The translations under genes and the position numbers were made by a program. The notes under the pieces are model-generated. The model did no database searches and had not been told where the DNA came from. It worked only from the letters and a program-made list of their open reading frames with translations. Source: Candidatus Nanoarchaeia archaeon (GTDB lineage Archaea; Nanobdellota; Nanobdellia; Woesearchaeales; SM23-78). From it: 62,083 bases of DNA. Positions 360-34,674 of the stretch are shown here, piece by piece (within the stretch, counting starts at the first letter, position 1; each line of letters opens with the position of its first letter). The DNA is taken from assembly GCA_035289665.1 (NCBI GenBank), contig DATDWO010000071.1, positions 1 to 62,083 of the forward strand, given 5' to 3'.

Positions 360-497
360 AGGTAAAGGAGGGTCTGGAGCCTTATAAAGCATGACCCTTT
401 TTTGAGGAGAAAAACAGCTCAAATAGGACGTCCCATGCACAATCTTTATAAACGTAGATTGACCATATTCCAAGATAGGATTCTAAAGAACACCACC

Positions 498-1250
498 ATG
501 GCCGAACTCTTGATCCAACAAAAAACAGCCACCCAAGACCGTATATTCAGCATCTTATTCAACCAGGATGAAATCACTTGGCAGAACATCATCTACGAAT
601 TAATCAACACTGAACAGATGGATCCTTGGGACATTGACGTGAGTCTAATCGCAGCGCATTTCTTAGACACCATCAAGAAATTGGAAGCCACAGATTTTCG
701 TCTTTCCGGCAAGATCATCCTCGCCTCAGCTTTATTACTGAAAATTAAATCCAATCAATTGTTAGATGAAGACATTGCCGCTTTGGATCAGATGATCTCC
801 GGCGAATTAGACAACGTCAACTTATACGATGAAATCGAAGGCAGCCGCCCAAGACCCGACATTCCTGGATTGGTTCCAAGAACCCCTCAACCAAGAAAAA
901 GAAAAGTTTCCGTATACGACCTAATCCAAGCCTTGGAAAAAGCCTTGGAAGTGGAAGCAAAAAGAAAACGGTTTGTTTCTGCTGCCCCGATGCAAGTGAA
1001 GATGCCCGATAAAAAATTTGACATCAGCGAAGTCATCGAAGACGTTTACGAAAAAGTCTTTGCTCATCATCAGAACAATGGCCAGAATGCCTTGACCTTC
1101 TCGCAGCTCGTCAATTCCGACGTCAAGGAAGATAAGATCTTCATGTTCCAACCCCTTCTTCACCTAGACACGCAAGGCCGTATAGACTTGCAGCAAGCCG
1201 AGCACTTCGGCGAGATTCACATTCATGTGAAGGAGAATAAGGTCTCCTAA
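498..1250 (+). CDS. scpA: segregation and condensation protein A (kleisin)
   Basis: DPWDIDVSLIAAHFLDTIKKLEATDFRLSGKIILASALLLKIKSNQLL matches the ScpA signature. Start moved to ATG 498 (MAELLIQQK), in frame within the TTG-initiated ORF 402..1250. Confidence 0.8.
   Translation: MAELLIQQKTATQDRIFSILFNQDEITWQNIIYELINTEQMDPWDIDVSLIAAHFLDTIKKLEATDFRLSGKIILASALLLKIKSNQLLDEDIAALDQMISGELDNVNLYDEIEGSRPRPDIPGLVPRTPQPRKRKVSVYDLIQALEKALEVEAKRKRFVSAAPMQVKMPDKKFDISEVIEDVYEKVFAHHQNNGQNALTFSQLVNSDVKEDKIFMFQPLLHLDTQGRIDLQQAEHFGEIHIHVKENKVS
1206..1250. repeat. direct repeat DR-A, left copy (authentic 3' end of scpA)
   Basis: 45 nt, 42/45 identical to 3429..3473. Perfect 35-nt core ttcggcgagattcacattcatgtgaaggagaataa. 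Confidence 0.9.
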
Positions 1251-1253
1251 GTC

Positions 1254-1709
1254 TCAGTTTTTAAGTTGTTTGTCAATGGTTTTTTGAATCGTACTAATAT
1301 AAAGATCCATCTGGAATTCAACTGTTTTCCAGGTCTCTTGACTGATGTCTTTTCCTTTGTATTTATTCTGGTTTCGGACAGTGCGAATGGTTTCAAAGAA
1401 GTGCCAGTCGAATTCAAGTTCAGAGTAGTTCAGCAGGATAAAGGCAAAGAGTCCTTGGTGATTACTCGTCTTTTGTTTCTTGAACTTCATAAGAACACCG
1501 CAAAGCTCTCGCAAAACATCGTAGTGAATGTTAAAGATAACTCGCCAATTAGGTTTCTCCATTTTTCTGAGTTGCTTTCCATATTCATAATCTTCGAGCG
1601 CCATCATCTTAACCTTCTCTATCTCATCTTGATCAAAGTGTGCTTCTTCATACAGTCCTTGGCTTACAAGGTCATCGTACACTTCCTCAGGCGTTTTTTC
1701 TTTAGGCAT
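1254..1709 (-). CDS. HEPN-like partner of the MNT gene (putative toxin)
   Basis: Overlaps the upstream MNT gene by 8 nt. Helical protein with IRTVRNQNKYKG, an RNxxxY-type motif shared with the other MNT partners here. Canonical Rx4-6H is absent. Confidence 0.45.
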   Translation of the reverse strand: MPKEKTPEEVYDDLVSQGLYEEAHFDQDEIEKVKMMALEDYEYGKQLRKMEKPNWRVIFNIHYDVLRELCGVLMKFKKQKTSNHQGLFAFILLNYSELEFDWHFFETIRTVRNQNKYKGKDISQETWKTVEFQMDLYISTIQKTIDKQLKN

Positions 1710-2259
1710 GCACAGTCACCGTGAAGGGCTCTAGGCTTTCTTTGATTTGAAATCCTCGAGCAATATTGGGGAGCAATTTGGGATCAAGTTCTTTGCTCAT
1801 CGTATGAGAGTCTATATAACTTAGCACTTGAATCTCTCTTCCCAACTTACGCTCAAAACCAGCTTTGTCAAAACCAGAATCATCGCCATAGATAAAAAGG
1901 TCAATATCACTGGACTTGCTCCAGTCGCCTCTGCCAAAGCTACCGAAAAGAAGAGTTGTTTTAATATCTGGAAGGGATCGGAGATGTTCAAAGAGGCCGC
2001 TCTGTGCAAGCAAGTAGAGTCCATACAATTGTTTCTCCGTACGGAAGGTAAGAGAGTCTTGGTTGGCGACATAATAGGGCATTCGACCGCGTGGTTTGGC
2101 TCGCAAGATAACGTTTTCTTTTATGAGTTTTTTCAAGTAATGGTTGACCCGCTCTCGGCTCATGACAGAAGCTCGTACAAGGTCTTCAAAGTGCCATCTT
2201 CGCAAGCTTTCCTCTAAAAACAGGGCTTTGAGCTTCTCCACTTTAGTATGATAAATCAT
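1702..2259 (-). CDS. winged-helix + minimal nucleotidyltransferase (MNT-type antitoxin)
   Basis: LLFGSFGRGDWSKSSDIDLFIY is the GSxxRG...DxD nucleotidyltransferase motif. The N-terminal ~70 aa are wHTH-like. Confidence 0.75.
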   Translation of the reverse strand: MIYHTKVEKLKALFLEESLRRWHFEDLVRASVMSRERVNHYLKKLIKENVILRAKPRGRMPYYVANQDSLTFRTEKQLYGLYLLAQSGLFEHLRSLPDIKTTLLFGSFGRGDWSKSSDIDLFIYGDDSGFDKAGFERKLGREIQVLSYIDSHTMSKELDPKLLPNIARGFQIKESLEPFTVTVHA

Positions 2260-2361
2260 ACTAATATTTAAAGGTTACGACTTAAATAATATACCAAATC
2301 ACATAATAATATGTTACTAAATACCATAAAGTTTATATACTAAGTCACATTTCTAGAGTAA

Positions 2362-2763
2362 ATGAAAATAGAAAGCCATCTTCGGAACTACAAAGAAAGT
2401 CTTGAGGAGCTAGAAAGAGCCATCCGAAGCGGCCTAGAAGGAAAGCAAAGAACCATTGGGTTTCATGCTTCCGTTGCCATGGTGGATTTGCTAGAGATGT
2501 TTCTGCACAAGAAAAACCTATTGAGTTCAGACCAGGTTCTAAAGCACGACTGGTTCGCTTCGAAAAACAAGATCCAAGAAAAACTATCCATACCTTTCGA
2601 CAGAAAAGAAGAAATTCTAACGCATATGCATTCCATTGAAGAAAGGCGAAACACGCTTTGCTACGGCTCGCCGCAAGAAAAACAAATTCTAGAAGAGATC
2701 ATTCAGCATTTCCAAGCATTGCGAAAAATATTCAAGGAGTTGGGGTTGGATGAAATCAAGTAA
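2362..2763 (+). CDS. HEPN-like protein paired with a nucleotidyltransferase
   Basis: Helical 133-aa protein with an ERRNTLCYG motif. Overlaps the following NTase gene by 14 nt. Confidence 0.45.
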   Translation: MKIESHLRNYKESLEELERAIRSGLEGKQRTIGFHASVAMVDLLEMFLHKKNLLSSDQVLKHDWFASKNKIQEKLSIPFDRKEEILTHMHSIEERRNTLCYGSPQEKQILEEIIQHFQALRKIFKELGLDEIK

Positions 2764-3388
2764 ATTAGTGGCCTACGCCATGGATTTTGCTTCCTTCTTC
2801 ATGGAACAGATAAAAGATCCCGATACGGTCCGAGCGATCATCTTATTCGGGAGTACAGCCCGTGGAGATCAGACACTGGAAAGCGACATAGATCTATTCA
2901 TCGATACCGACACGATAAACAATGTTTTTGTAAATAAAGTCTTGGATGATTTCTACGCAAGCCTTAAGTTTCAGAAATATTGGAAGTTACTTGGAGTTTC
3001 AAATTCGATTTCTTGCAAAGTCGGGCGATTGGAAGAATGGGAATTAAAAAATTCCATGATAGCGAATGGAATTGCTATCTACTCAAAATATGCCGGAAAG
3101 CCAGATGGAGAGCTATACGTCTTATTCTTAGTCGAAGTGAAAGGCTTGCACAAGGACAAGGTTAGGATTTGGAGGAGGCTCTACGGCTACAAGCAGAAAG
3201 TTAAAGATAAAACATATGTCCTACCCGGCCTCATCGAACGCCTCGGTGGGAAGCGCCTCTCTCCCTCTGCCTTTTCCATTCCAGCAGCACGATCCTACGA
3301 GATGCAGGACTTCCTCTCAAAAAACAGTCTAACATATCAAAGGATGGACATCTGGACGAACAACCTCAACGTTCCCGGCAACAACTAG
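2750..3388 (+). CDS. nucleotidyltransferase domain protein
   Basis: ILFGSTARGDQTLESDIDLFID motif. Confidence 0.75.
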   Translation: MKSSKLVAYAMDFASFFMEQIKDPDTVRAIILFGSTARGDQTLESDIDLFIDTDTINNVFVNKVLDDFYASLKFQKYWKLLGVSNSISCKVGRLEEWELKNSMIANGIAIYSKYAGKPDGELYVLFLVEVKGLHKDKVRIWRRLYGYKQKVKDKTYVLPGLIERLGGKRLSPSAFSIPAARSYEMQDFLSKNSLTYQRMDIWTNNLNVPGNN

Positions 3389-3428
3389 ACGACCACCGTC
3401 AAAGCATCGAAGACCTCAACAACCTCCT

Positions 3429-3473
3429 TTCGGCGAGATTCACATTCATGTGAAGGAGAATAAAGCTTCCTAA
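3429..3473. repeat. direct repeat DR-A, right copy (orphan duplicate of the scpA 3' end)
   Basis: Would encode FGEIHIHVKENKAS-stop, versus FGEIHIHVKENKVS-stop at the real scpA end. Sequence upstream of it is unrelated to scpA. Confidence 0.9.
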
Positions 3474-3576
3474 CGGGTTTCTGTCAAATAAGCCATAAAA
3501 GTTCTAAATAGTTGATCGAAAGCTTTATATAGATAAAGTAATTACTTATAATTACAAATGATTAGAGTAGGTTCCA

Positions 3577-3774
3577 TTGAAGCTGATCATTACAATCCAT
3601 GCACGGCAGCAGATGTTCGATCGAGGAGTCGACGAAGAGCAGATAAAAACAGCCATACAAAGAGGGGTCAAGTTCAGACAAACCGATGGATTTAAATCCA
3701 TCTACTCTTATATAGGGGTTTGCTATAAAGTCAAAGGCGATGAATACACCATAAAAACCGTAACAATCGAATAA
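3577..3774 (+). CDS. DUF4258-like small toxin candidate
   Basis: TTG start. IHARQQMFDRGVDEEQIKTAIQRG resembles the DUF4258 HAxxRMxxRGI signature. Sits 2 nt upstream of the antitoxin-like gene. Confidence 0.45.
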   Translation: MKLIITIHARQQMFDRGVDEEQIKTAIQRGVKFRQTDGFKSIYSYIGVCYKVKGDEYTIKTVTIE

Positions 3775-3776
3775 AA

Positions 3777-4106
3777 ATGGTCAAATGCTATCTATGCGAA
3801 AAAGGAACCTTAAGCCGGAAAAAGGTAGATTACGAGCTATACGGCACTTCTTTAGGTAAGTTCATGGCTGAGACTTGCAATGCCTGCGGTGAAATCTTCT
3901 TCTCAGAGAACGTTTCTAAAAAAATGACCGAGCTTGCTAAGAAAAAGGGTCTTTGGGGTTTGTATGCCAAGACCAAGATCGGTCAAGCTGGAACAACCTT
4001 AGACATCCGTCTGCCTAAGAAGATCATTCAATTCCTCAACTTAAAAAAAGGCACTGAGATCAATCTGCAGCCAGAAGGAAGGAATAGATTGGTTATAACG
4101 ACTTAA
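3777..4106 (+). CDS. YgiT/MqsA-type zinc-finger protein with C-terminal AbrB/SpoVT-like domain (antitoxin candidate)
   Basis: CYLCEKG...CNACGE forms a CxxC...CxxC zinc ribbon. C-terminal LDIRLPKKIIQFLNLKKGTEINLQPEG is a swapped-hairpin-like motif. Confidence 0.55.
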   Translation: MVKCYLCEKGTLSRKKVDYELYGTSLGKFMAETCNACGEIFFSENVSKKMTELAKKKGLWGLYAKTKIGQAGTTLDIRLPKKIIQFLNLKKGTEINLQPEGRNRLVITT

Positions 4107-4117
4107 TTTGTCAAGTA

Positions 4118-4255
4118 ATAGCGAATCTCATAAATATCGATAATTCCGTTAATCAAGCTACTTATCTAGATGGAATTATCGGGATGAATAATCCCGCCAA
4201 AAGTAAGATAATCAGCGGGATTATCCATAATTGAACAAATTGTGAGATTCGCTAT
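4118..4255. repeat. nested inverted-repeat element
   Basis: Outer IR is atagcgaatctca 4118-4130 with tgagattcgctat 4243-4255. Inner IRs are cgataattcc 4138-4147 / ggaattatcg 4172-4181 and ataatcccgc 4188-4197 / gcgggattat 4215-4224. Confidence 0.8.
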
Positions 4256-4474
4256 AAGTGAAAAACTCAATTCGCTACTAAGTCACATATAAAATTGTTA
4301 CTAGATACCATAAAATTTGTAAATGAACCAAAGTTACATATATGGGTAACCTTCGTTAATCATAAAAACACACTAACGCCGTCGATGGATATATTTTTTG
4401 TTAGCATATCATTATCAAAAATGATAATATAATAAAAACGAAATATTTATATAGATAAGCCCCTTAATAGAGGC

Positions 4475-5182
4475 ATGCAACTCCTCCAAGTCATCCGGCA
4501 TTTGGAACAGTCATCTTTGGCTGTATTTACCATAAACGATCTGTCACGTATTCTTCGAAAACCAAAAAACTACTGCTCTCTATATCTTCACCGGCTGAAG
4601 AAAAAAGAGCATATCTTACAAGTTGAAAAGGGAAAATACGCCCTAAATGACACCAACATATACGCAATTGCATCCAATTTAATTCCTCATTCTTATGTTT
4701 CCTTCTTATCAGCATTATCTTATTACAAACTCACGACGCAGCTCCCGCAAACCATTCATGTGGTAGCCCCAAAGTCTAAAAAGCCAATCTACTTTCAAGG
4801 ATACAACCTCCACTTTGTTAAAATGAATCCTTCAAAGATTTTCAGCATAACTAAACAATATTCAGGAGGGAAAAATCTTTTTATTGGGACCAAGGAAAAA
4901 GTGATCATTGACTCCATCTACCTCCCCCGATACTGTCCTTTAAGTGAAACGTATGATGCTCTCAAAGAAGCAAAATTAGGCCTGAATGAGCTACTGCGCA
5001 CAGCTTTAAAAATGCACTCTTTTGTCCTGATGAAGCGTTTAGGCTATTTGCTTGAGAAAGAAGGCATCAACCTTTCAAGAAAAATCAAGCTAAATAAAAC
5101 CTATGATCGCCTGAATCCATTTACCCCTGGAAAAGGAAGGCGAAACGACAAGTGGAAGCTTATCGTGAATGAGGAGATCTAA
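4475..5182 (+). CDS. abiEi: AbiEi-like antitoxin / transcriptional regulator
   Basis: N-terminal wHTH (FTINDLSRILRKPKNYCSLYLHRLKKKEHILQVEKGKYAL). Stop overlaps the start of the AbiEii-like gene. Confidence 0.6.
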   Translation: MQLLQVIRHLEQSSLAVFTINDLSRILRKPKNYCSLYLHRLKKKEHILQVEKGKYALNDTNIYAIASNLIPHSYVSFLSALSYYKLTTQLPQTIHVVAPKSKKPIYFQGYNLHFVKMNPSKIFSITKQYSGGKNLFIGTKEKVIIDSIYLPRYCPLSETYDALKEAKLGLNELLRTALKMHSFVLMKRLGYLLEKEGINLSRKIKLNKTYDRLNPFTPGKGRRNDKWKLIVNEEI

Positions 5183-5946
5183 TGGATAGAAACGAATTAT
5201 CTAAGTATCAGACTGTCCTTAACTTGAACCTGGGACAGCTTGATGTCGACTATTTCCAGCACCAAATCCTCCTTCTTCTTTCCAGAACCACTTCGAATGA
5301 GCTCGTCTTTAAAGGAGGAACGGCCCTAGCCAAAGCCTTCGGTTTGAGCCGCTTCTCTGAAGACCTGGATTTTACAGCCGTCAAGAAGATAGACCTAGGA
5401 AAAATCCTTGATCGAATCGTAACAGAGCTCAGAATCATGGGCACAACGACTGAAGCAAGCCCGATAGAGAAAAAAGAAGTCTCCACCACAGGCCGATTGC
5501 GCATCCAAGGTACTACATACGATGGGACTGAGCTATCCAAACTCTCCATTCATATGGATATTTCCACTCGAGAAAAAGTAATTCTTTCCCCCCTTTTCAT
5601 CGAAATTACGCCCCTCTATCAGGACTTGCAACCCTATACGCTTCTTGTCATGAAGCCGGAAGAAATCCTGGCCGAAAAAGTAAGGGCTTTGCTTACGCGA
5701 AACAAAGCAAGGGACCTATACGACCTCTATTTCTTACTCAACAAAAAAATACCACTAAATGTAAAACTCGCTCAGGAAAAACTTTCCTATTACAGGCAAG
5801 CCTTCAACCGAAAGAAGATGGAAGAAAAGATAGGCTTGCTGAAGAAATCCTGGAAAAACGAGCTGGAACCGCTCGTGCAGGATCTTCCCCCATTCGACCA
5901 AGTCAGGAAAGCAGTGCAAGATGCCATCCACAAATCATTTGGATAG
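5182..5946 (+). CDS. abiEii: AbiEii/AbiGii-family nucleotidyltransferase toxin (DUF1814-like)
   Basis: FKGGTALAKAFGLSRFSEDLDFT is typical of the AbiEii NTase family. Confidence 0.7.
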   Translation: MDRNELSKYQTVLNLNLGQLDVDYFQHQILLLLSRTTSNELVFKGGTALAKAFGLSRFSEDLDFTAVKKIDLGKILDRIVTELRIMGTTTEASPIEKKEVSTTGRLRIQGTTYDGTELSKLSIHMDISTREKVILSPLFIEITPLYQDLQPYTLLVMKPEEILAEKVRALLTRNKARDLYDLYFLLNKKIPLNVKLAQEKLSYYRQAFNRKKMEEKIGLLKKSWKNELEPLVQDLPPFDQVRKAVQDAIHKSFG

Positions 5947-5948
5947 GT

Positions 5949-6890
5949 CTACGCTCTCGGATACAAATTATACTTATGCTGCCGTTTGCTGTAAAAATAG
6001 CTCATACTGCTCAGTGTATCTTTAAATTGAGAGCGTAGCTCTCGCAGGAAGCTGTCCAAATCTGAAATAGAAGCTGCCACATAATAAATAAAGAGCGTGG
6101 GGCTATTCGCGCTCTTAAAACAGGCACGAATCTCTTTTTTACTGCGAAGATATTGAACCAGTCGCTGCTCTTCGTTAAAAAGGTGGAAATTCAGCCATAC
6201 AAAGTACATGTTCAGCCCAAGGACACCAACATTGATTTTGGCAAGGAAACGCCGGATGATCCCTGCTTCTTTGAGGTGCTTGATGCGTGCACTCACTGTT
6301 TCATACGTTAAACCGATCCGGTCAGCCATTTCTCGAAATTGAAGTGTAGCATTTTCGTCTAAAAGAGCAAGCAATTTATGATCGGTTTTATCAGGAACCA
6401 GTGTTGAAAAAGAAGAGGGTTTAGGAAGGTTTTCCGGGAAAAAATCTTTACGAATGGGGAGCATATTTTGAAAATAGAACTTAGCGACTTCATGAACTTG
6501 GTATTGGACAATGTTTTTGGAAAAGGGTTCTAGGATCTGATTTAAAAGGGCTGGGAAAAAATCATTGAGGGGGTGAGTCATTTCTAAGATCAGATCCCAG
6601 TCTCCACTGAGTTCATCCACAATGATGACAAAGGGCAACGCACAGAGATGTTGAATAAAAGTAGAAGTTTCTTCTTCCGTCATGCTCAGCTTCAAGAAAA
6701 GTTCCCGAGTGCAATAGTTAGGTAAATCAATTTGGGCAAAGTAACCTTGAATAAGCCCTTCGTGTTCCATGCGCTGAATCTTATAGTCCACCCCATTCTT
6801 ACTGAGGCTGACTTTTTTGCCGAGCTGAAGATGGCTGATCCGGCAGTCTTGAGTAAGCTCGTACAACTTGATATTTACCTGTTCGTTCAA
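5949..6890 (-). CDS. tandem Lrp/AsnC-type transcriptional regulator
   Basis: Two HTH-AsnC-like modules (LGKKVSLSKNGVDYKIQRMEHEGLIQGY and FREMADRIGLTYETVSARIKHLKEAGIIRRF). Confidence 0.6.
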   Translation of the reverse strand: MNEQVNIKLYELTQDCRISHLQLGKKVSLSKNGVDYKIQRMEHEGLIQGYFAQIDLPNYCTRELFLKLSMTEEETSTFIQHLCALPFVIIVDELSGDWDLILEMTHPLNDFFPALLNQILEPFSKNIVQYQVHEVAKFYFQNMLPIRKDFFPENLPKPSSFSTLVPDKTDHKLLALLDENATLQFREMADRIGLTYETVSARIKHLKEAGIIRRFLAKINVGVLGLNMYFVWLNFHLFNEEQRLVQYLRSKKEIRACFKSANSPTLFIYYVAASISDLDSFLRELRSQFKDTLSSMSYFYSKRQHKYNLYPRA

Positions 6891-7068
6891 AGATCCTCAC
6901 GAAATAGATCAATTAACTCATGCACTGCGTCAAGACCATAAGGATATCATCGATCGACAAGAATATATGATTCTTTGTAAACAATTGGGGTTCAACTTAT
7001 TCCCAAAAGGGCTACTTAAGTGAGTTTATCCTTTGTTAATTTGCCTTGTAAGAATTCATTTCTTGATT

Positions 7069-7533
7069 TTATGGCAACTTGGAGAATTTTCCTTCGTCCA
7101 CTGGAAAGGGAGGTGGAGATGCTCCATAAACCTCCAAAGCAGGTGTCATGGAATGACCTTGCATGATTTCAGTGAGGACATCAAAGGCCGTACCTTGTTC
7201 ATCCTTAACAACAACCCGAAGGGGTTCAAACCATTGACCATGCATCTCCCAATTCCCAACCAGAGCATGCTCTTCAGGTGTCAGAACCCATAACATCCCA
7301 TTCACTTTCTTTCCCTTGGCTCTTCGGGCACAATACGTCTTAAATGAAGGGTCCCACCCGCAACGAAAAAGAATTTCCCTCACATTCGAAGGGATCTCGA
7401 GCCATTCTTGAATGCACAATTCAAAATCTTCCAGTACAGCAGGAACGCCCATCGGTACACGTCCAACCATAGCCTCCATCATTTCAGGAGTCTTATTGGC
7501 TCCATATCCAAAATAGCGAACAGTTGAGGTCAT
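7069..7533 (-). CDS. gamma-glutamylcyclotransferase / AIG2-like protein
   Basis: N-terminal RYFGYGANKTPEMM resembles the GGCT YFAYGSN motif. Size is compatible. Confidence 0.5.
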   Translation of the reverse strand: MTSTVRYFGYGANKTPEMMEAMVGRVPMGVPAVLEDFELCIQEWLEIPSNVREILFRCGWDPSFKTYCARRAKGKKVNGMLWVLTPEEHALVGNWEMHGQWFEPLRVVVKDEQGTAFDVLTEIMQGHSMTPALEVYGASPPPFPVDEGKFSKLP

Positions 7534-7621: not shown

Positions 7622-8611
7622 ATGATTAACTTGGATTTCGTGCGTATATTCGTAAACGGTAACGTTCAAAATAGATTTGTTCTGTTGGCGGAAAGATTAG
7701 AGCAGTTTATCGCTGAAATTGCCCCCATTATAGAAAGAGTTAATCTCTCCGTGGATCGCTTTAAAGGCATGACTATGGAAAAAGTCACTTCGAATGAGAT
7801 TGAAGTTAGTTACCGAAGCGATGCTACAAACGCAAAGGCAGGGCTATCTGCTTATAATCGAATGTTTGGTCAAATTGATCATCATCTGGCGATGGCTTCC
7901 TCAAATTTTGGCTTACCTAAATTTTTAGAAGAAAATGGTGTTCCAAAAGCACTCATAAACGAATATCAATCATGTATCCACCAATATTGGGATGAAACAT
8001 ATGGATTGATTGGGAATAAATTTAGAAAAATTTTACCTATACTAAAAGATATGCGCAGCACTTTAAGTAGGGAGGTATTCTTACTCGAGGCGCAACAAAA
8101 AGTGCTCTATTTTAGAGGATTTGACCCAGCAAGGGAGTTACATGAATTGTTCAAGAAAGAACGAGAATTATTTTACAAATTAGTCGGGGAATGGCGAAGC
8201 AGCGATTTCTCAGATGAATTTACCCATGTAGAATCCATATGTAACGTGTATCTAGCTAAAGCAAAAGAGTGGGCTAAAAATGTAATGCGTCAAACACAGT
8301 CATTGGTAAAAGAAGATTTTACAAGTCATCAAGAAAAAGGGCAAAGGATTTTACTTGTATTGATGTACTCATTAGGAGCTGCAAATACCCTTTTAAATCT
8401 AAATCTTAAGAAAAAAGCAGCGAGCGCAGGAATCAAATACCTTATCGGGAAAATAGGAGGGCTAAAAGAATATATGGAGCAAAAAGGAGTGATAACCAAG
8501 TTTGAAGGAGCTCAAAGAGCAGCACAAGCTCTTGTAGCTGAAAGAACACAAGATGCTATGGCAAATGGATTAACTAGAGCAGCCCAAGAACTGTTAAGGA
8601 TTGTAGCATAG
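7622..8611 (+). CDS. hypothetical 329-aa helical protein with one hydrophobic segment
   Basis: Long ORF with a promoter-like AT-rich upstream region. ILLVLMYSLGAANTLLNL is a TM-like segment. No motif recognised. Confidence 0.5.
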   Translation: MINLDFVRIFVNGNVQNRFVLLAERLEQFIAEIAPIIERVNLSVDRFKGMTMEKVTSNEIEVSYRSDATNAKAGLSAYNRMFGQIDHHLAMASSNFGLPKFLEENGVPKALINEYQSCIHQYWDETYGLIGNKFRKILPILKDMRSTLSREVFLLEAQQKVLYFRGFDPARELHELFKKERELFYKLVGEWRSSDFSDEFTHVESICNVYLAKAKEWAKNVMRQTQSLVKEDFTSHQEKGQRILLVLMYSLGAANTLLNLNLKKKAASAGIKYLIGKIGGLKEYMEQKGVITKFEGAQRAAQALVAERTQDAMANGLTRAAQELLRIVA

Positions 8612-8618
8612 TAGCTTG

Positions 8619-8716
8619 TATACGTCTACACCCCCCAATATTTTCTTGTAATGTGTCCGTACACCTCATCCAGCCATTTCAATCTCCAGTCGGTTCTTCT
8701 CGACGGGGTAAATCCG
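8619..8716. repeat. cassette-junction repeat R, copy a
   Basis: Starts with tatacgtctaca. An imperfect palindrome spans 8619-8663. It is followed by a ~50-nt block nearly identical to copy b (ttcaatctccagtcggttcttctcgacggggtaaatccg). Confidence 0.85.
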
Positions 8717-8730
8717 AAACCTTTAAATAT
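8715..8730 (+). promoter_or_regulatory. BRE/TATA-like promoter of the MNT gene
   Basis: cgaaacctttaaatat lies 32 nt upstream of ATG 8762. The same cgaaaccttta core occurs at 10212 and 15667. Confidence 0.5.
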
Positions 8731-8739
8731 ATGGCTTAT

Positions 8740-8757
8740 AACCATAATATTATGGTT
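8740..8757. promoter_or_regulatory. perfect 18-bp palindrome (operator candidate)
   Basis: aaccataatattatggtt lies between the TATA-like box and ATG 8762. Confidence 0.55.
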
Positions 8758-8761
8758 TAAT

Positions 8762-9331
8762 ATGGTCAATGAAAAGTTAAGCATATTGCGTCTATTAATA
8801 GAGAGCCAAGAAGTATCATTCAACATAAGAAAAATCTCACTACTCAGAAAGATCAATTACAAGTCAGCGTACAACGCTATAAAAGCCTTGGAAAAGGAGC
8901 AGGTCATCACAGCAAGAAAAATCGGCAATACAACCGAGTGTTATTTTAACAAAAATTTCAACCCTTCGGTCTTTACCGTAGAACACCTGCGAAGGGAGGA
9001 GTTGCTTAAAAACATCGATTTTAAGGTCATCTACAAAAAATTAAGCCGGATAAAGAAGCCTTTGATCGCCATTCTTTTCGGTTCCTACGCAAACAAAACA
9101 GCAACAAAACATTCGGACATCGATATCTTATCCATATCCGACAGTCCGGAAGACATTGAAAAAGAGCTATCCTTACTGGCTTTAAACATACACCATACCG
9201 GCATCCGTTACGAGGATTTTCAGCACATGTTAAAAAGCAAGGAGCTTTCCGTGGTTAGCGAAGCGGTTAAAAAGAACATCCTCCTCGTTGGAATCGAAGA
9301 GTATTACAGGCTGATCCAAGATGCTCAGTAA
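8762..9331 (+). CDS. winged-helix + minimal nucleotidyltransferase (MNT-type)
   Basis: ILFGSYANKTATKHSDIDILSI motif. Start moved to ATG 8762 (MVNEKLSILRLL), in frame with ORF 8651..9331. Confidence 0.75.
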   Translation: MVNEKLSILRLLIESQEVSFNIRKISLLRKINYKSAYNAIKALEKEQVITARKIGNTTECYFNKNFNPSVFTVEHLRREELLKNIDFKVIYKKLSRIKKPLIAILFGSYANKTATKHSDIDILSISDSPEDIEKELSLLALNIHHTGIRYEDFQHMLKSKELSVVSEAVKKNILLVGIEEYYRLIQDAQ

Positions 9332-9866
9332 GGAAAGGGTAAAGGAAGCGGAACAAAACGTCAAATCTTATCTAGTTCAAGGGCTCATGAAAAAAGAGCC
9401 GTTCAAGCAAATCGTATATGACGTCTTGCGAAAAAACGCAGATGAAAGCCTGAAATTAGCAAAAACCATACATGACAATCTATATTCTGATTTATGGGCA
9501 ATCGTGATTTCCTACTATTCAATGTATTACATCTCAAACGCAGTCTTATACAAACTAGGCTACAAGGTCGGGGAAAAAATATCTCACAAGATAACCTCCG
9601 ATGCTCTAATGGTCTATGTAAGGAAGCACCTGCACGAATCTTTAATAGAGGACTATGAAGACTCAAAAGAACAGGCTCTTGCTGGGATTAAGGCAGACGA
9701 ACTCATTGAATCCTTCGACTTTGAGAGGAGAAAAAGGAGCAGGATCCAGTACAAGACAGAAGAGATCGAGAAACACGCCAAAGCAAAAACATCCTTGCAA
9801 AGGGCGATTGTCTTCGCAACCGAAATGGAAAAGCTCATCGAAAAGACAGGCAAGAATGCCAAGTAG
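9321..9866 (+). CDS. HEPN-like partner of MNT
   Basis: Overlaps the MNT gene by 11 nt. WAIVISYYSMYYISNAVLYKLGY and RRKRSRIQY motifs parallel the 10846..11430 gene. Confidence 0.55.
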   Translation: MLSKERVKEAEQNVKSYLVQGLMKKEPFKQIVYDVLRKNADESLKLAKTIHDNLYSDLWAIVISYYSMYYISNAVLYKLGYKVGEKISHKITSDALMVYVRKHLHESLIEDYEDSKEQALAGIKADELIESFDFERRKRSRIQYKTEEIEKHAKAKTSLQRAIVFATEMEKLIEKTGKNAK

Positions 9867-9937
9867 AAGGAGGGGAAGAAGCAGTAAAAGTGAGCCTAGG
9901 GAAAGCAGCAGACCTAATTGCAACCATGGTCTAGATC

Positions 9938-9968
9938 TTTCACAACTTTTTTAAAACGCTCGTCGATA
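9938..9968. repeat. direct repeat DR-B, left copy
   Basis: tttcacaacttttttaaaacgctcgtcgata matches 12443..12473 at 29/31 positions. Confidence 0.85.
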
Positions 9969-9969
9969 A

Positions 9970-10068
9970 TATACGTCCACATTACAACATTATTTCAACG
10001 CAATGTACCCGTACACATCACCCCGCCACTTCAATCTCCAGTCGGTTCTTCTCGACGGGGTAAATCCG
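9970..10068. repeat. cassette-junction repeat R, copy b
   Basis: Starts with tatacgtccaca, immediately after DR-B. Palindrome arms lie at 9970-9983 and 10003-10015. The 3' block is nearly identical to copy a. Confidence 0.85.
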
Positions 10069-10211
10069 TACCAAGTCTTAAAATATACATTTCCCTCGCT
10101 CAGGAGTGTATGTTATTCTATACAACATTATAGATCAATAATAACGTTTTTGTTATATTATATAACTTTAGCCAATATATGCCTTTTTGCCATGCGTTCG
10201 GGTAAGAGTAC

Positions 10212-10227
10212 CGAAACCTTTATATAT
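10212..10227 (+). promoter_or_regulatory. BRE/TATA-like promoter of the MNT gene
   Basis: cgaaacctttatatat lies 38 nt upstream of ATG 10265. Confidence 0.5.
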
Positions 10228-10235
10228 CACTATAT

Positions 10236-10251
10236 ATGATAATATTATCAT
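10236..10251. promoter_or_regulatory. perfect 16-bp palindrome (operator candidate)
   Basis: atgataatattatcat shares the ataatattat core with the 8740-8757 palindrome. It is followed by a partial half-site tgataatat. Confidence 0.55.
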
Positions 10252-10264
10252 AATAAGTGATAAT

Positions 10265-10858
10265 ATGCGTTTAGAGCTCAAAATCATAGAAAAGCTAGTC
10301 AGGGAGGAGAAGGAGTGCACCATCCATGCCCTCTCTTTGGAACTGAGCGAGCCTTATTCCCTGCTTCATCGGAAAGTCCAAGAGCTCTCAGAAGAAGGGG
10401 TTCTATCTAAAAAAACAGCCGGAAAGGCCACGCTTTGTGCGATTAACTTGAAAAACAGCAAGGCTCGAGCTCTCCTGCACTTGACCGAAGTCAACAAAGC
10501 GCAGGCATTCATGGAAAAAAACAGGGAAGTCAGGCTCTTGTTGGCAAGCTTTGTCGAAAGGGCCAAAAACGATTATAAAAATAGCCTTTCATTCATTGTT
10601 CTTTTCGGCTCTTGGGCACAGGAACAAGCCAGTAAAGAAAGCGACATCGATCTTTTTATACTAACCAGGAAAAAATCCGATTTAGCCGGAATTTCTAGGG
10701 AGTTAAATGCCCAATACGGTTTAGAAATCAACCCTTTACAACTCACTCCGAAAGAATTTGAATCTGAGCGAGAAAAGGAACTTATAAAAACGATTCTAAA
10801 AACCCATATCGTATTATACGGGTTTGAAAGCTTCCTGGAAAAGATGTGGCCTTTATGA
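10265..10858 (+). CDS. winged-helix + minimal nucleotidyltransferase (MNT-type)
   Basis: VLFGSWAQEQASKESDIDLFIL motif. Start moved to ATG 10265 (MRLELKIIEKL). Confidence 0.75.
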   Translation: MRLELKIIEKLVREEKECTIHALSLELSEPYSLLHRKVQELSEEGVLSKKTAGKATLCAINLKNSKARALLHLTEVNKAQAFMEKNREVRLLLASFVERAKNDYKNSLSFIVLFGSWAQEQASKESDIDLFILTRKKSDLAGISRELNAQYGLEINPLQLTPKEFESEREKELIKTILKTHIVLYGFESFLEKMWPL

Positions 10859-11430
10859 ATTCCAAAGAGATCCTGTTAAAAGCACTTGAACGCCAGAAAA
10901 GAAAGGAACGCGGCCTGCGGCTCATCCAGCCGAACAAGGACTTAGCTAAAGGACACCTTGCCAAAGCAGATCACAATTTAGTGGTCATGACCGATTTAAA
11001 AAACCTGAATCACACCGACTGGGTCGTCACTACGGCTTATTATGCCATGTACCACGCCGCCACAGCCATCCTCGCCGAAGTAGGGTTGGACAGCAAAGAC
11101 CATGCCACCACAGTCGCTGTTCTATAGTATTTCTTCAGGGAAAAAATGGACGCTTTCCTGTTAGATAAATTCAACGAATTAAAGTACAAAAAAGACCGCA
11201 TGGAGCAACTCAAAATAGACGAAAAATTCATAGACTATTTCTGGAAGGCGAAACAAAATCGTGAAACCGCACAGTATGGCATCGAAACTTCTTACCAAGA
11301 AGCAGAGTTTATCATAAGGCATGCAAGAGAATTTGTCACAAAGATCAAAATCGTCCTGGAAGAATTGGATGAAAAAGTCGTGAAACTCATAGGAGAAGAA
11401 GCAAGGGAGTTGTATAATAAGGTTCATTAA
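10846..11430 (+). pseudogene. HEPN-like gene interrupted by a single in-frame TAG
   Basis: ORFs 10846..11127 and 11146..11430 are in the same frame. TAG at 11125-11127 splits ...DHATTVAVL*YFFREKMDAFLLDKF... The joined product aligns along its length with the 9321..9866 protein. Confidence 0.55.
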
Positions 11431-11470
11431 AAGGGTGAAAATCAGCGTATTTCAATGAGACTTCCAGGTT

Positions 11471-11516
11471 TATACGTCTACACTACAACAATATTTATAT
11501 ACAATGTACCCGTATA
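11471..11516. repeat. cassette-junction repeat R, copy c (5' palindromic part only)
   Basis: tatacgtctacac...atgtacccgtata. It contains atatttatata about 30 nt upstream of the Fic ATG. Confidence 0.7.
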
Positions 11517-11522
11517 TGTACT

Positions 11523-12425
11523 ATGGTCTACACTGAGGTTAAGAAAAAGGGAAAAAACAAGTATTATTATCGCGCAAAGTCGGTACGAAAAGGGGATAAA
11601 ATCCTAAAGGAACGTAAGTACCTCGGAGTAAACCTAAGCCAAAAAAAGCTTATCCAAGCCGAAAACACTGCGGACGAGAAGCTTTCCTTGCTAGAGTACC
11701 TACTCAGTCCAGAGGAGCTTAAATTCCTAGAGAAACTCAAAAAAGGGTACGCCAAAGAACCAAAGCTTAACCTCGAGCAGCGCTACGAAGCCTTCTGTGC
11801 CCAGTTCACCTATGATTCCAACGCCATTGAAGGCAACACCCTTACCTTACAGGAAACGGCTCATTTATTATTCGAGAAAACAGTTCCTGCCCATAAGTCA
11901 TTAAGGGAAATCAACGAGGCATTGAATCACAAACAGGCCTTTGACTTTCTGTTGAGTTATAAGAAAGACATCACAAAAGTGCTCATCAACCATCTACATC
12001 GTCTCGTTGTAAAAGACACGTTAAAACCGGATCTGCAAGATCAAGTGGGAAAATACCGCACACTTCAAGTCTACATTCGAGGTGTAGATTGGACACCCCC
12101 TCAGCCAAAAGAAGTGCCTAAAGAGATGAAATCGTTGCTTTTTTGGTACACTCAACATAAGAAAAAACTGCATCCTCTGATTCTAGCGGCTTACTTCCAC
12201 GCGGCCTTTGAAGGCATTCACCCGTTTGTAGATGGGAATGGTCGGGTCGGCCGTTTGCTGCTCAATTTCATATTACACAAGAACAAGCTTCCAATGGTCA
12301 ATATCCCAAATAAGCAGAGACTGATTTATTACAAAGTGCTAGAACAGGCCCAGCGAAAAGACAACCTTCACCCTTTGATCGAATTGCTCTTGAGTCTTCT
12401 TAAAACAAGCAATATTCAATTTTAA
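11523..12425 (+). CDS. Fic/DOC family protein
   Basis: HPFVDGNGRVGRLLLN is the HxFx(D/E)GNGRxxR Fic motif. YDSNAIEGNTL is an inhibitory-helix-like SxxxEG motif. Confidence 0.85.
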   Translation: MVYTEVKKKGKNKYYYRAKSVRKGDKILKERKYLGVNLSQKKLIQAENTADEKLSLLEYLLSPEELKFLEKLKKGYAKEPKLNLEQRYEAFCAQFTYDSNAIEGNTLTLQETAHLLFEKTVPAHKSLREINEALNHKQAFDFLLSYKKDITKVLINHLHRLVVKDTLKPDLQDQVGKYRTLQVYIRGVDWTPPQPKEVPKEMKSLLFWYTQHKKKLHPLILAAYFHAAFEGIHPFVDGNGRVGRLLLNFILHKNKLPMVNIPNKQRLIYYKVLEQAQRKDNLHPLIELLLSLLKTSNIQF

Positions 12426-12442
12426 AAGAGTCGCCTAGGTTG

Positions 12443-12473
12443 TTTCACAAGCTTTTTAAAACGCTCGTCGATA
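12443..12473. repeat. direct repeat DR-B, right copy (eif6 promoter region)
   Basis: tttcacaagctttttaaaacgctcgtcgata ends 9 nt upstream of the eif6 ATG. Confidence 0.85.
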
Positions 12474-12481
12474 CTCAGGAC

Positions 12482-13165
12482 ATGCCTGCCTTAATTGCAC
12501 ATCTAAACGGCAATCCAAACATTGGTTTATACGGCTTTTGTACAGATAAATATGTCTTAGTGGGCAAGGAAGTCTTTCCAGAGTTGGCTGCAAAAATAGG
12601 AAAAGCCTTGAAAGTCCCTGTCCACCGAATCACGATTGCCGGCACCAGTTTCATCGGTGTCTTCTTAGCAGGCAACAGTCACGCGTTATTAGTCCCTTCC
12701 TTGATCTTCGACTATGAATTGGAGGCCTTAAAAAAATTTAAGCTTCCCATTCAAGTCATGGATACTAGACTAACTTGTCTGGGCAACAATATATTATGCA
12801 ATGATCAGGGAGCAATCATCAGTCCAGAGTTCACACAGCAAGAAATGCAATTCATTCAAAAAGCATTAAAAGTTCCTGTGCAAAAGGCCAAGTTGGTCAG
12901 TTTGGATAATTTAGGCAGTCTCGCTGCGTTAAATAAACGCGCAGCTTTAATCCATATGGATGCAAGTGAAGAAGATTTTCAGTTGATCAAAAAAGTGTTA
13001 AATCTAAAGGCATTCCCGGGCACAATTAACTTAGGCAATCCATACATCAAAGCAGGCTTGTTGTGCAACGATCAGGGCTATGTGGTAGGGGAGCAATCGG
13101 GTGGTCCGGAAATGGTCTACCTAGAGCAATGCCTGGGTTTTGCAGGTAAGGTGGAAGATGAGTGA
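12482..13165 (+). CDS. eif6: translation initiation factor 6 (aIF6)
   Basis: MPALIAHLNGNPNIGLYGF... with pentein-like internal repeats. Conserved archaeal neighbourhood eif6-pfdA-ftsY. Start moved to ATG 12482. Confidence 0.8.
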   Translation: MPALIAHLNGNPNIGLYGFCTDKYVLVGKEVFPELAAKIGKALKVPVHRITIAGTSFIGVFLAGNSHALLVPSLIFDYELEALKKFKLPIQVMDTRLTCLGNNILCNDQGAIISPEFTQQEMQFIQKALKVPVQKAKLVSLDNLGSLAALNKRAALIHMDASEEDFQLIKKVLNLKAFPGTINLGNPYIKAGLLCNDQGYVVGEQSGGPEMVYLEQCLGFAGKVEDE

Positions 13166-22814: not shown

Positions 22815-23484
22815 ATGCACAATAAAACTAAACAAGAACAGTGGAATGATGTGTATGATAAATTCTATGGAAACAGGCGTTCAGTTTGGAGAGAGAACGC
22901 TACTCCTTTTTTTACGAACAAAATTGACTACCTAAAACATAAGAAAGTCAAAACTGTCCTGGATGCTGGCTGTGGCGATGGGAGAAACCTAATCGCTTTT
23001 GCAAACGCTGGTTTCGAAATTACAGGGGTTGATATATCTGATATAGCATTGAAGAAATGCCACAAAGCAGTTGGAAGGAAAAAAAAATGTTACCCTTAAG
23101 AGAGAGCCGCTTGAGGAATTGAGTTTCAAACCATCATCATTTGATGCTATAATATGCGATTTTGTTCTTGTGCATGTAGAAGAAATTGAAAAAGTATTAT
23201 CTAATTTCCACAAGGTGCTAAAAATGGGGGGCTATGCTTTACTGGAATTTATATCGACAAAAGATGAACGTTGTAACCGCGGTCAAAAAGTTGGACGGAA
23301 TCAATATCTCCAACATGGTACATTCATCAGAACATTTGACATCAAAGATATCGAACGCCTGTTAAAAAAATTTAATATACTATTTATTGAAACAGAGTAT
23401 TATACTGACCCACACCACGGCGGCGGTTATCATAGGAAAGAAAGGCATATACATCATTCCTATTTTGTAATTGCACAAAAATAA
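22815..23484 (+). pseudogene. class I SAM-dependent methyltransferase interrupted by a frameshift in an A9 run
   Basis: VLDAGCGDGRNL is motif I. ORFs 22815..23099 and 23071..23484 join across aaaaaaaaa 23079-23087 (..KAVGRK | KNVTLKREPLEELSFKPSSFDAIICDFVLVHV..). Confidence 0.6.

Positions 23485-31335: not shown

Positions 31336-34674
<3,339 letters not shown>

Follow-up and report, generated by a model that had tools for sequence, protein, structure and literature searches.

Contig DATDWO010000071.1, a 62-kb metagenome contig analyzed at full length and here called the window, raises the question of how short palindromic repeats came to separate toxin-antitoxin cassettes immediately upstream of the housekeeping gene eif6. 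Two pairs of winged-helix-turn-helix nucleotidyltransferase (wHTH-MNT) and HEPN genes and one Fic gene are found there, and a first-pass annotation read the repeat between them as an integron-like junction or a target of serial site-specific insertion. We consider it probable that scpA and eif6 bound a hypervariable toxin-antitoxin islet of which the region is the right-hand part, carried by a DPANN (Woesearchaeota/Nanoarchaeota-type) archaeon of aquifer metagenomes; that the repeats are recombination scars made from ordinary functional modules rather than a dedicated recombination site; and that cassettes are swapped through those modules as homology anchors. The loci of relatives used in comparison are labeled L003 to L046.

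Composition of the junction repeats

The first-pass annotation described three junctions that start with one short block, two of which continue with a nearly identical segment of about 50 nt, together with an imperfect palindrome and a duplicated 31-bp segment from upstream of eif6, and each of these was recovered. The 12-mer TATACGTCYACA, searched with one mismatch allowed, matched at 8619, 9970, and 11471 only, each time on the plus strand (0.22 matches expected by chance; 0 of 100 shuffles reached three). We call the copies that begin at these positions a, b, and c. Copies a and b were 85% identical over 81 to 98 nt, with an uneven distribution: 42 of the first 60 positions agreed and 39 of the last 39, the latter containing the exact 39-mer TTCAATCTCCAGTCGGTTCTTCTCGACGGGGTAAATCCG at 8678-8716 and 10030-10068, of which none was expected by chance. 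Copies b and c shared only the first 44 to 46 nt, at 84% identity. The 31 bp at 12443-12473 (prom) recurred at 9938-9968 with 29/31 identity, and one base separated that duplicate (prom') from copy b. The dyad symmetry was real, with 83% of cells pairing compared to 11 to 47% when the partner columns were slid. A compensatory change claimed between acac/gtgt and acat/atgt found no support; 195/500 and 38/500 shuffles reached the observed values, and copy c, L044, and the second L010 copy break the pattern. We conclude that the junction repeat, annotated as a unit of about 98 nt, is a real repeat at cassette boundaries but a composite of a palindromic element and the 3′ stub of an antitoxin gene rather than one site.

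We define the palindromic element, a dyad of 45 to 46 nt with the consensus TATACG-TCY-ACA...TGT-RYC-CGTAYA, as pal and its three copies in the 62-kb contig as pal.a, pal.b, and pal.c. The center of pal.c is a canonical TATA box, TTTATATA; the window, L009, L044, and L037 all have a TATA box 29 to 30 nt ahead of the Fic ATG, and the arms are either conserved or replaced by a better dyad. The replacement is seen in L037, where Fic is 62% identical and the arms TACGTCCACATC and GATGCGGACGTA around AATATTTAAA make the palindrome perfect. Such a layout, with a TATA box about 25 to 30 nt upstream of a leaderless gene, dyad arms, and conservation with orthologs, is that predicted for an archaeal Fic promoter/operator. 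Because the same element stands at the same distance from Fic in L009, L044, and L037, we conclude on sequence grounds that pal is the native promoter/operator of this Fic gene family. Two 12-nt arms flank the TATA box and would probably be bound by an AbrB-type antitoxin or another repressor. Covariation within pal did not exceed that of shuffles, and dyad symmetry without covariation is expected of a protein-binding DNA site rather than of a folded strand. The single-strand fold of pal was unremarkable (fold z-scores of +0.5 and −0.5 for pal.c).

Further copies of pal were very few. Outside the window strain, true matches in genome, metagenome, and viral collections were found only in L009, L010, L012, and L015, and the element amounts to about one to three copies per genome and is limited to a few DPANN contigs among 596 Gb of genomes plus metagenomes. 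An exact 23-mer scan of genomes gave no match, searches of plasmid and phage collections gave none, and the pattern met only chance matches within coding sequence in viral contigs. Other identities for pal were rejected. A small open reading frame (ORF) starting from an ATG in the right arm (MCPYTS.../MYPYTS...) has lost its start in L010, and its frame is not conserved. A miniature inverted-repeat transposable element (MITE) would have the inverted arms, but no target-site duplication flanks pal and very few copies occur in any genome. Finally, pal is not the natural 3′ flank of zinc-ribbon-AbrB (ZnR-AbrB) genes, as the more distant intact homologs in L034 and L036 have no pal downstream.

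The segment that follows pal in copies a and b reads as coding sequence on the minus strand. The shared translation, RIYPVEKNRLEIE(M/V)AG*, matched the C terminus of an L009 ORF at 1083..1343(-) and of the fused ZnR-AbrB proteins P0003 to P0005, and database homologs of the gene are such fusions. Copy a translates as RFRIYPVEKNRLEIEMAG and copy b as DLVRIYPVEKNRLEIEVAG, and stop codons close both frames just upstream (in stub a, two codons further upstream). At the same locus in L009, whose eIF6 is 81% identical, the minus-strand gene is nearly complete, ends in ...RIYPVEKNRLEIEVAGL / ...DLVRIYPVEKNRLEIEVAGL, and has a zinc-ribbon ORF before it. Because the minus-strand reading matches both the L009 gene and the fused homologs, we conclude that the conserved segment of about 50 nt is the predicted 3′ tail of a lost minus-strand ZnR-AbrB antitoxin gene, the remainder of which has been replaced. 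In the 39 nt, six sites vary among the window, L009, L010, and L044, of which five are synonymous and one conservative in the old frame (by reading; P of about 0.005 to 0.03, a rough count), and the pattern suggests that intact alleles were truncated recently and perhaps independently. Within the 142 nt between copy b and MNT2 is a second stub (10154-10213), 95% identical over 60 nt to the 3′ end of a 269-amino-acid (aa) MNT-like gene of L009 (44..853, minus strand), which is intact there. We note that the L009 ZnR-AbrB region (1083-1533, minus strand) consists of two overlapping ORFs with extra sequence between ...KKRKLFGLE and VQVTKSGNS relative to the fused P0004 and may itself be disrupted.

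Noncoding readings of the 39-mer were set aside. A solitary clustered regularly interspaced short palindromic repeat (CRISPR) was suggested by the minus strand of the 39-mer, which ends in ...GATTGAAAT, but the window had no array or further copy, and the segment is explained as coding. A candidate RNA hairpin (CCAGTCG...CGACGGG) is broken by uncompensated substitutions in L009, L010, and L044 that are synonymous on the other strand. No tRNA, tmRNA, or known RNA was found, with no match in Rfam 15 at gathering score or at E ≤ 1, and the degenerate stub pattern had no match in viral contigs. Where palindromic repeats lie between toxin-antitoxin genes, the opposite strand is best read for gene remnants before attC is called.

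Each MNT-HEPN cassette appears to carry its own promoter. The sequence CCGAAACCTTTAWATAT followed by a perfect palindrome stands directly after stub a and, in copy b, after the second stub, and is the predicted transcription factor B recognition element (BRE)/TATA box and operator of the wHTH-MNT genes. MNT homologs of 45 to 50% identity in other Woesearchaeota have the same CGAAAC-TTTAWATAT promoter layout with neither pal nor stub; the promoter and operator would thus be a family feature of the cassettes, and the junction repeats are not merely the conserved promoter of a paralogous MNT family. The MNT1 promoter segment had a depth of 3-4x in the source metagenome contigs, which indicates that the segment is common to other contigs. 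The cassettes meet the stubs at CCG(AAA) or CCG / TACCGAAA microhomologies exactly at the start of these promoters, and CCG is common to the end of stub a and the start of the MNT1 promoter. We note that each wHTH-MNT gene has a different perfect palindrome between its TATA box and ATG (AACCATAATATTATGGTT at 8740-8757; TGATAATATTATCA, in a 21-nt tandem, at 10225-10262) and that homologs in other genomes have still different palindromes at the equivalent position, a pattern which suggests that operator and winged-helix domain may co-vary.

Pfam confirmed the gene calls for both wHTH-MNT proteins, HEPN2, Fic, and eIF-6; HEPN1 (9321-9866) had no Pfam match and was aligned with HEPN2. MNT1 and MNT2 were 29% identical and HEPN1 and HEPN2 were 24% identical, and the junction repeats are therefore far younger than the cassettes. 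HEPN2 (10855-11430) is interrupted by an in-frame TAG at 11125-11127, giving 90 + 94 aa in all near-identical contigs, other samples included, and this toxin-like partner in cassette 2 is probably inactivated unless the TAG is read through. HEPN RNases usually carry Rx4-6H; as read from the translations, HEPN1 and HEPN2 share R-x4-Y (RSRIQY and RETAQY) where that motif is expected, and Fic contains the intramolecular inhibitory motif SNAIEGN. In contig L003 MNT2 looked split, but this reflected only a scaffold gap.

Variation of the islet and exchange of the Fic block

The cassette turnover that the first-pass annotation supposed was borne out when the scpA-eif6 interval was compared among relatives. 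These form a narrow clade, with only five eIF6 proteins 72 to 81% identical to that of the window and the next best at 54%. In L046, 330 nt and no gene separate scpA from eif6, making an empty site. In L044, the 2.3-kb interval holds DUF4258 and ZnR-AbrB genes, a 242-aa homolog of a 329-aa window gene, an AbrB stub, pal, a decayed Fic gene, and the eif6 promoter. In L010 the interval measures 4.4 kb, and its final part runs from a 331-aa gene through a pal interrupted by a 97-nt inverted-repeat element, an AbrB stub of 75 nt, and a HEPN-MNT pair of another type to a further pal, which keeps only 10 nt of what follows pal in copy b, and lastly the eif6 promoter. L009 is a 7.1-kb contig that cuts the islet at its left end and retains the MNT-like gene, ZnR-AbrB, pal-Fic, and the eif6 promoter, and the 11.2-kb interval of the window holds seven toxin-antitoxin or Abi modules. 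The window arrangement recurs in every near-identical contig, these coming from several aquifer samples, and no joint that skips a cassette was found in eight metagenome runs, represented by assembled contigs, which hide rare variants. We conclude that the interval is a variable toxin-antitoxin/defense hotspot between core genes, at 0.33, 2.3, 4.4, and 11.2 kb.

Decay and insertion were also seen in individual relatives. The Fic pseudogene of L044 (3165-3600) has CTG in place of its start ATG and an internal deletion that corresponds to window positions 11648-12161, and its pal and eif6 promoter are still intact. The 97-nt element of L010 (8559-8655) has 18-nt terminal inverted repeats (TATAGAGGACTTTGAATA / TATTCAAAGCCCTCTATA) and sits in the AT-rich center of the pal after the 331-aa gene. 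Similar ends occur at L009 1-43, downstream of the MNT-like gene, and at L036 ~2140-2270, near an IS66-type transposase gene, and the element looks like a member of a small MITE family of these archaea.

Recent exchange was evident in the Fic block. From the first base of pal.c (11471) to about 12474, the end of the 31-bp promoter segment, the window and L009 were identical at 999 of 1,004 positions (99.5%). Beyond the block there was no homology on the left, and on the right identity was 74% in eif6 and 72% in pfdA. The L009 allele, with single-nucleotide polymorphisms of its own, was found in runs where the remainder of the window is absent, and contig L024 independently confirmed the left junction; the allele is therefore not an assembly chimera. 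L044 has the same pal-Fic-promoter-eif6 order at background divergence (73 to 82%), which indicates that the order is ancestral, and a recent allelic replacement is the best reading of the near-identity of the block. Good homology flanking the exchanged block would be limited to pal (46 nt) and the promoter segment (31 nt). We conclude that short conserved regulatory modules seem to act as recombination anchors.

The features of the region are collected in Table 1. The 329-aa gene at its left border had no match in Pfam or NCBIfam, and its sole full-length homolog was the 331-aa protein of L010 (85% identity), the L044 homolog being shorter. The eif6 core promoter segment is conserved in L009, L010, L044, and L045, and the segments 9867-9937, 10080-10153, and 11431-11470 had no match in the loci compared. 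The remainder of the islet after scpA (window 402-7533), in which no module is flanked by pal, includes HEPN-MNT pairs at 1254-2259 (minus strand) and 2362-3388, a DUF4258/BrnT-like toxin with a 109-aa ZnR-AbrB partner at 3577-4106, AbiEi/AbiEii at 4475-5946, and a double Lrp/AsnC-type regulator at 5949-6890. Elsewhere in the window, the DNA gyrase B gene (31432-34674; 1080 aa) contains an intein according to precomputed Pfam matches (Intein_splicing), and a methyltransferase at 22815-23484 was called as two overlapping ORFs (94 + 137 aa) with the same Pfam families, which may reflect a frameshift.

Table 1. Features of the right-hand part of the scpA-eif6 islet in window coordinates
Feature	Position	Strand	Description	Basis
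329-aa clade-specific gene	7622..8611	+	Conserved left border of the right-hand islet part	ORF
pal.a	8619..8663	.	Orphan 45-46-nt dyad element; arms kept, central TATA box degenerate	
Stub a	8666..8716	-	Stop codon and last 16 codons (RIYPVEKNRLEIEMAG*) of predicted lost zinc-ribbon-AbrB antitoxin gene	Translation
MNT1 promoter	8714..8761	+	Predicted BRE/TATA CCGAAACCTTTAAATAT and perfect palindromic operator AACCATAATATTATGGTT at 8740-8757	
Cassette 1	8762..9866	+	wHTH-MNT1 (8762-9331) and HEPN1 (9321-9866)	
71-nt segment	9867..9937	.	No relative recognized in any locus compared	
prom'	9938..9968	+	Duplicate of eif6 core promoter segment, 29/31 identical; TATA TTTTTTAAAA intact	
pal.b	9970..10015	.	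Orphan dyad element copy	
Stub b	10018..10079	-	Stop codon and last 19 codons (DLVRIYPVEKNRLEIEVAG*); same antitoxin gene family as stub a; 95% identical to L009 gene	
74-nt segment	10080..10153	.	No relative recognized	
Second gene stub	10154..10213	-	Last 17 codons and stop (VLLPERMAKRHILAKVI*) of 269-aa MNT-like gene	
MNT2 promoter	10211..10264	+	Predicted BRE/TATA CCGAAACCTTTATATAT and own operator repeats/palindrome (TGATAATATTATCA)	
Cassette 2	10265..11430	+	wHTH-MNT2 (10265-10858) and HEPN2 (10855-11430)	
pal.c	11471..11516	+	Predicted working Fic promoter; TATA box TTTATATA at dyad center, 29 nt before ATG	
Fic	11523..12425	+	FICD-like AMP-transferase fold	Pfam
eif6 core promoter segment	12443..12473	+	TATA CTTTTTAAAA; right end of 99.5%-identical block common with L009	
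eif6	12482..13165	+	Conserved right border of islet	Pfam eIF-6

Origin of the arrangement

The repeats interleave in the order a - X - prom' - b - Y - prom. An arrangement of this kind would be expected if the window held two alternative islet alleles arranged head to tail, both extending from pal to the eif6 promoter and meeting at a joint between prom' and pal. Allele 1 would comprise pal.a-stub-MNT1-HEPN1-prom', and allele 2 would comprise pal.b-stub-(second stub)-MNT2-HEPN2-pal.c-Fic-prom. By one route, a circular copy would have inserted in Campbell fashion through a crossover in the identical 39-nt or 31-nt stretch. By another, homology-facilitated illegitimate recombination would have anchored the right end in prom/eif6 and joined the left end just after the resident promoter. 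With pal and prom as homology anchors, the cassettes between them could be swapped across lineages that are about 26% divergent. The first-pass annotation had proposed that a 2.5-kb block integrated site-specifically upstream of eif6; the 31-bp duplication does bracket an inserted block, but the site-specific part of the proposal fares poorly, as the unit shared between junctions varies by pair.

Several observations weigh against an origin of the repeats as scars. The pal of L015 is found 3′ of a Fic homolog rather than at its promoter. In each of eight contexts examined, pal was retained whole and its left edge was the homology boundary. The orphan copies keep their arms while their TATA centers decay, which suggests a function beyond that of a dead promoter. 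Five stubs in three lineages are of similar length (51, 60, ~60, 64, and ~75 nt), and the AbrB stub is 86 to 95% identical between lineages whose neighboring genes are 72 to 83% identical. Neither the clustering of lengths nor the conservation is predicted by random breakpoints with neutral decay, and the pal-stub unit could be under selection or itself be a substrate of recombination. Moreover, the joint of prom' and pal.b falls exactly between two functional modules, 1 nt apart, and the sample consists of contigs rather than reads from four lineages of the clade. The stub lengths, the whole pal, and the L015 and L012 contexts keep alive both a role of pal as operator and an undescribed recombinase, the recombinase being less likely.

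The first of these explanations, which we hold to be unlikely, is that orphan pal copies were kept as operators and that one repressor, either an AbrB-type antitoxin or the N-terminal domain of Fic, acts on pal.a, pal.b, and pal.c as a small regulon. Such binding would couple or insulate neighboring cassettes, with prom' reading into cassette 2, and would be compatible with a scar origin of the copies. Consistent with an operator, arms are conserved while orphan TATA centers degenerate, a dyad without covariation is typical of a protein-binding DNA site, the TATA box of prom' is intact, and pal precedes an AbrB-MazF operon in L012 and adjoins ZnR-AbrB in L009. Moreover, a reconstructed, rejoined version of ZnR-AbrB weakly matched the "doc_partner" antidote family. 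The window, however, has no intact ZnR-AbrB allele, only a distant paralog at 3777-4106, and the first pal of L010 was retained though split by an inserted element.

It is likewise improbable that pal, alone or combined with the 39-nt core, is a genuine att- or attC-like site for serial cassette insertion by a recombinase encoded elsewhere. In its favor, pal separates different cassettes both in the window, which has three copies, and in L010, which has two, and the exact 39-nt core of copies a and b has flanking arms of no more than 70% identity, as in attL/attR. The complete pal with its left-edge boundary, the arms better conserved than the center, and the clustered stub lengths would fit as well. 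For Nanoarchaeota, there are reports of toxin-antitoxin cassettes and of integrons, most of the latter lacking an integrase close by, and archaeal integrons as described retain canonical attC structure (Ghaly et al. 2022, PMC9668308). Against the explanation, no RYYYAAC (R″) and GTTRRRY (R′) boxes paired at 45- to 150-nt spacing on either strand of 8500-12600, where about one pair was expected by chance, and the called genes of the 62-kb contig had no match to Phage_integrase or to any recombinase or transposase Pfam family; the first-pass annotation had itself noted neither clear boxes nor an integrase. The TCY-versus-RYC internal mismatch is missing in the perfect dyad of L037, and pal, whose ends are TATACG and CGTAYA, has arms separated by about 21 nt, a distance too great for a tyrosine-recombinase core. 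Four other toxin-antitoxin/Abi modules (1254-5946) lack pal, and the MNT cassettes abut stubs, at microhomologies, rather than pal. The element is also conserved with one gene family, as its promoter, down to 62% protein identity. Finally, the shared unit is pal and stub in copies a and b, pal alone in copies b and c, and half a pal with 10 nt in the two L010 copies, such that no single fixed crossover point fits and homologous or illegitimate recombination with decay fits better. Together with the rarity of pal and the lack of a fold or covariation signal, we conclude that the integron/attC reading of this composite repeat is not supported.

Somewhat further from what we would expect is that the pal-stub unit and the promoter segment are recognition sites of an undescribed DPANN cassette-exchange system, integron-like with noncanonical sites, with either a recombinase encoded elsewhere or a host partner as its driver. 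Were there such a system, it would explain the intact pal, the kept orphan arms, the common 39-nt stub core, and the movement of a 1-kb cassette between lineages 26% divergent.

A plain tandem duplication of an MNT-HEPN unit with its upstream region, followed by divergence of the paralogs, would account for copies a and b both preceding wHTH-MNT/HEPN pairs and for CCGAAACCTTTAWATAT in both MNT promoters, but it is excluded for practical purposes because the paired proteins are only 24 to 29% identical against 85% with 39 exact bases in the upstream repeat, the repeat lies upstream of the promoter and consists of a minus-strand gene tail and a Fic promoter, the stretch from copy b to MNT2 holds a second, unrelated stub, and MNT homologs elsewhere lack the repeat.

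Comparison with known systems

The locus resembles several known systems in part. Sites of the attC type are usually about 57 to 141 nt long and fold as single strands into hairpins with conserved extrahelical bases, and an integron proper has beside its array an integrase, a tyrosine recombinase with an IntI-specific extra domain, which clusters of attC sites lacking integrases (CALINs) are without by definition. Like integron arrays and CALINs, the window has short imperfect palindromes between small, often toxin-antitoxin, cassettes, and its content varies; a CALIN would need no integrase. Unlike attC, pal falls below the usual length at 45 to 46 nt, is without boxes, doubles as the promoter of one gene family, is missing at some junctions, and numbers one to three copies per genome. 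Some integrative elements insert at the 3′ ends of genes and use a duplicated 3′ stub as att site, and here too duplicated 3′ gene fragments (50 to 75 nt, with an exact core) flank inserted DNA as direct repeats. Unlike such elements, the window block contains no integrase between the repeats, neither copy continues into an intact gene, no intact target gene has been restored, and a second, unrelated stub lies alongside.

The cassette genes match type VII MntA/HepT-like nucleotidyltransferase-HEPN modules and Fic/Doc with AbrB-type partners, and the palindromic operators predicted here overlap promoters, as expected for self-regulated toxin-antitoxin operons. They differ from MntA/HepT modules in the N-terminal winged-helix domain of the MNT proteins and in the in-frame stop of HEPN2, and from Fic/Doc in that Fic has its own inhibitory helix motif and may not need a partner. 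As in homology-facilitated illegitimate recombination or Campbell-type insertion, one side of the block ends in a homologous segment (prom/eif6 or the 39-nt core), other joints have 3- to 9-nt microhomology (CCG and TACCGAAA), and direct repeats flank the block. The joint of prom' and pal.b, by contrast, lacks clear microhomology, and the process at this locus is one that we infer from sequence.

DPANN archaea have tiny genomes with few recognizable mobile elements, and their gain and loss of accessory genes is poorly documented. The locus gives a base-level view of hotspot turnover in such a genome, with an empty site, decayed cassettes, stubs, and what appear to be alternative alleles in tandem. 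A 1-kb Fic unit was exchanged between lineages whose neighboring housekeeping genes are only about 74% identical, with promoter modules as its only shared flanks. If short regulatory elements commonly act as portable homology, they would offer a simple, enzyme-free route to integron-like modularity. Like known variable defense/toxin-antitoxin hotspots, the islet lies between one housekeeping pair, scpA and eif6, ranges from an empty site to 11 kb, carries MNT-HEPN, DUF4258/BrnT-ZnR-AbrB, AbiEi/AbiEii, and Fic as cargo, and contains pseudogenes and gene stubs. Unlike those hotspots, it belongs to a reduced DPANN genome, mobile-element genes are absent from the 62 kb, and short promoter modules are seemingly its sole shared flanks. 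We conclude that the locus is a well-resolved DPANN case of something already known, a variable toxin-antitoxin hotspot that bears apparent recombination scars.

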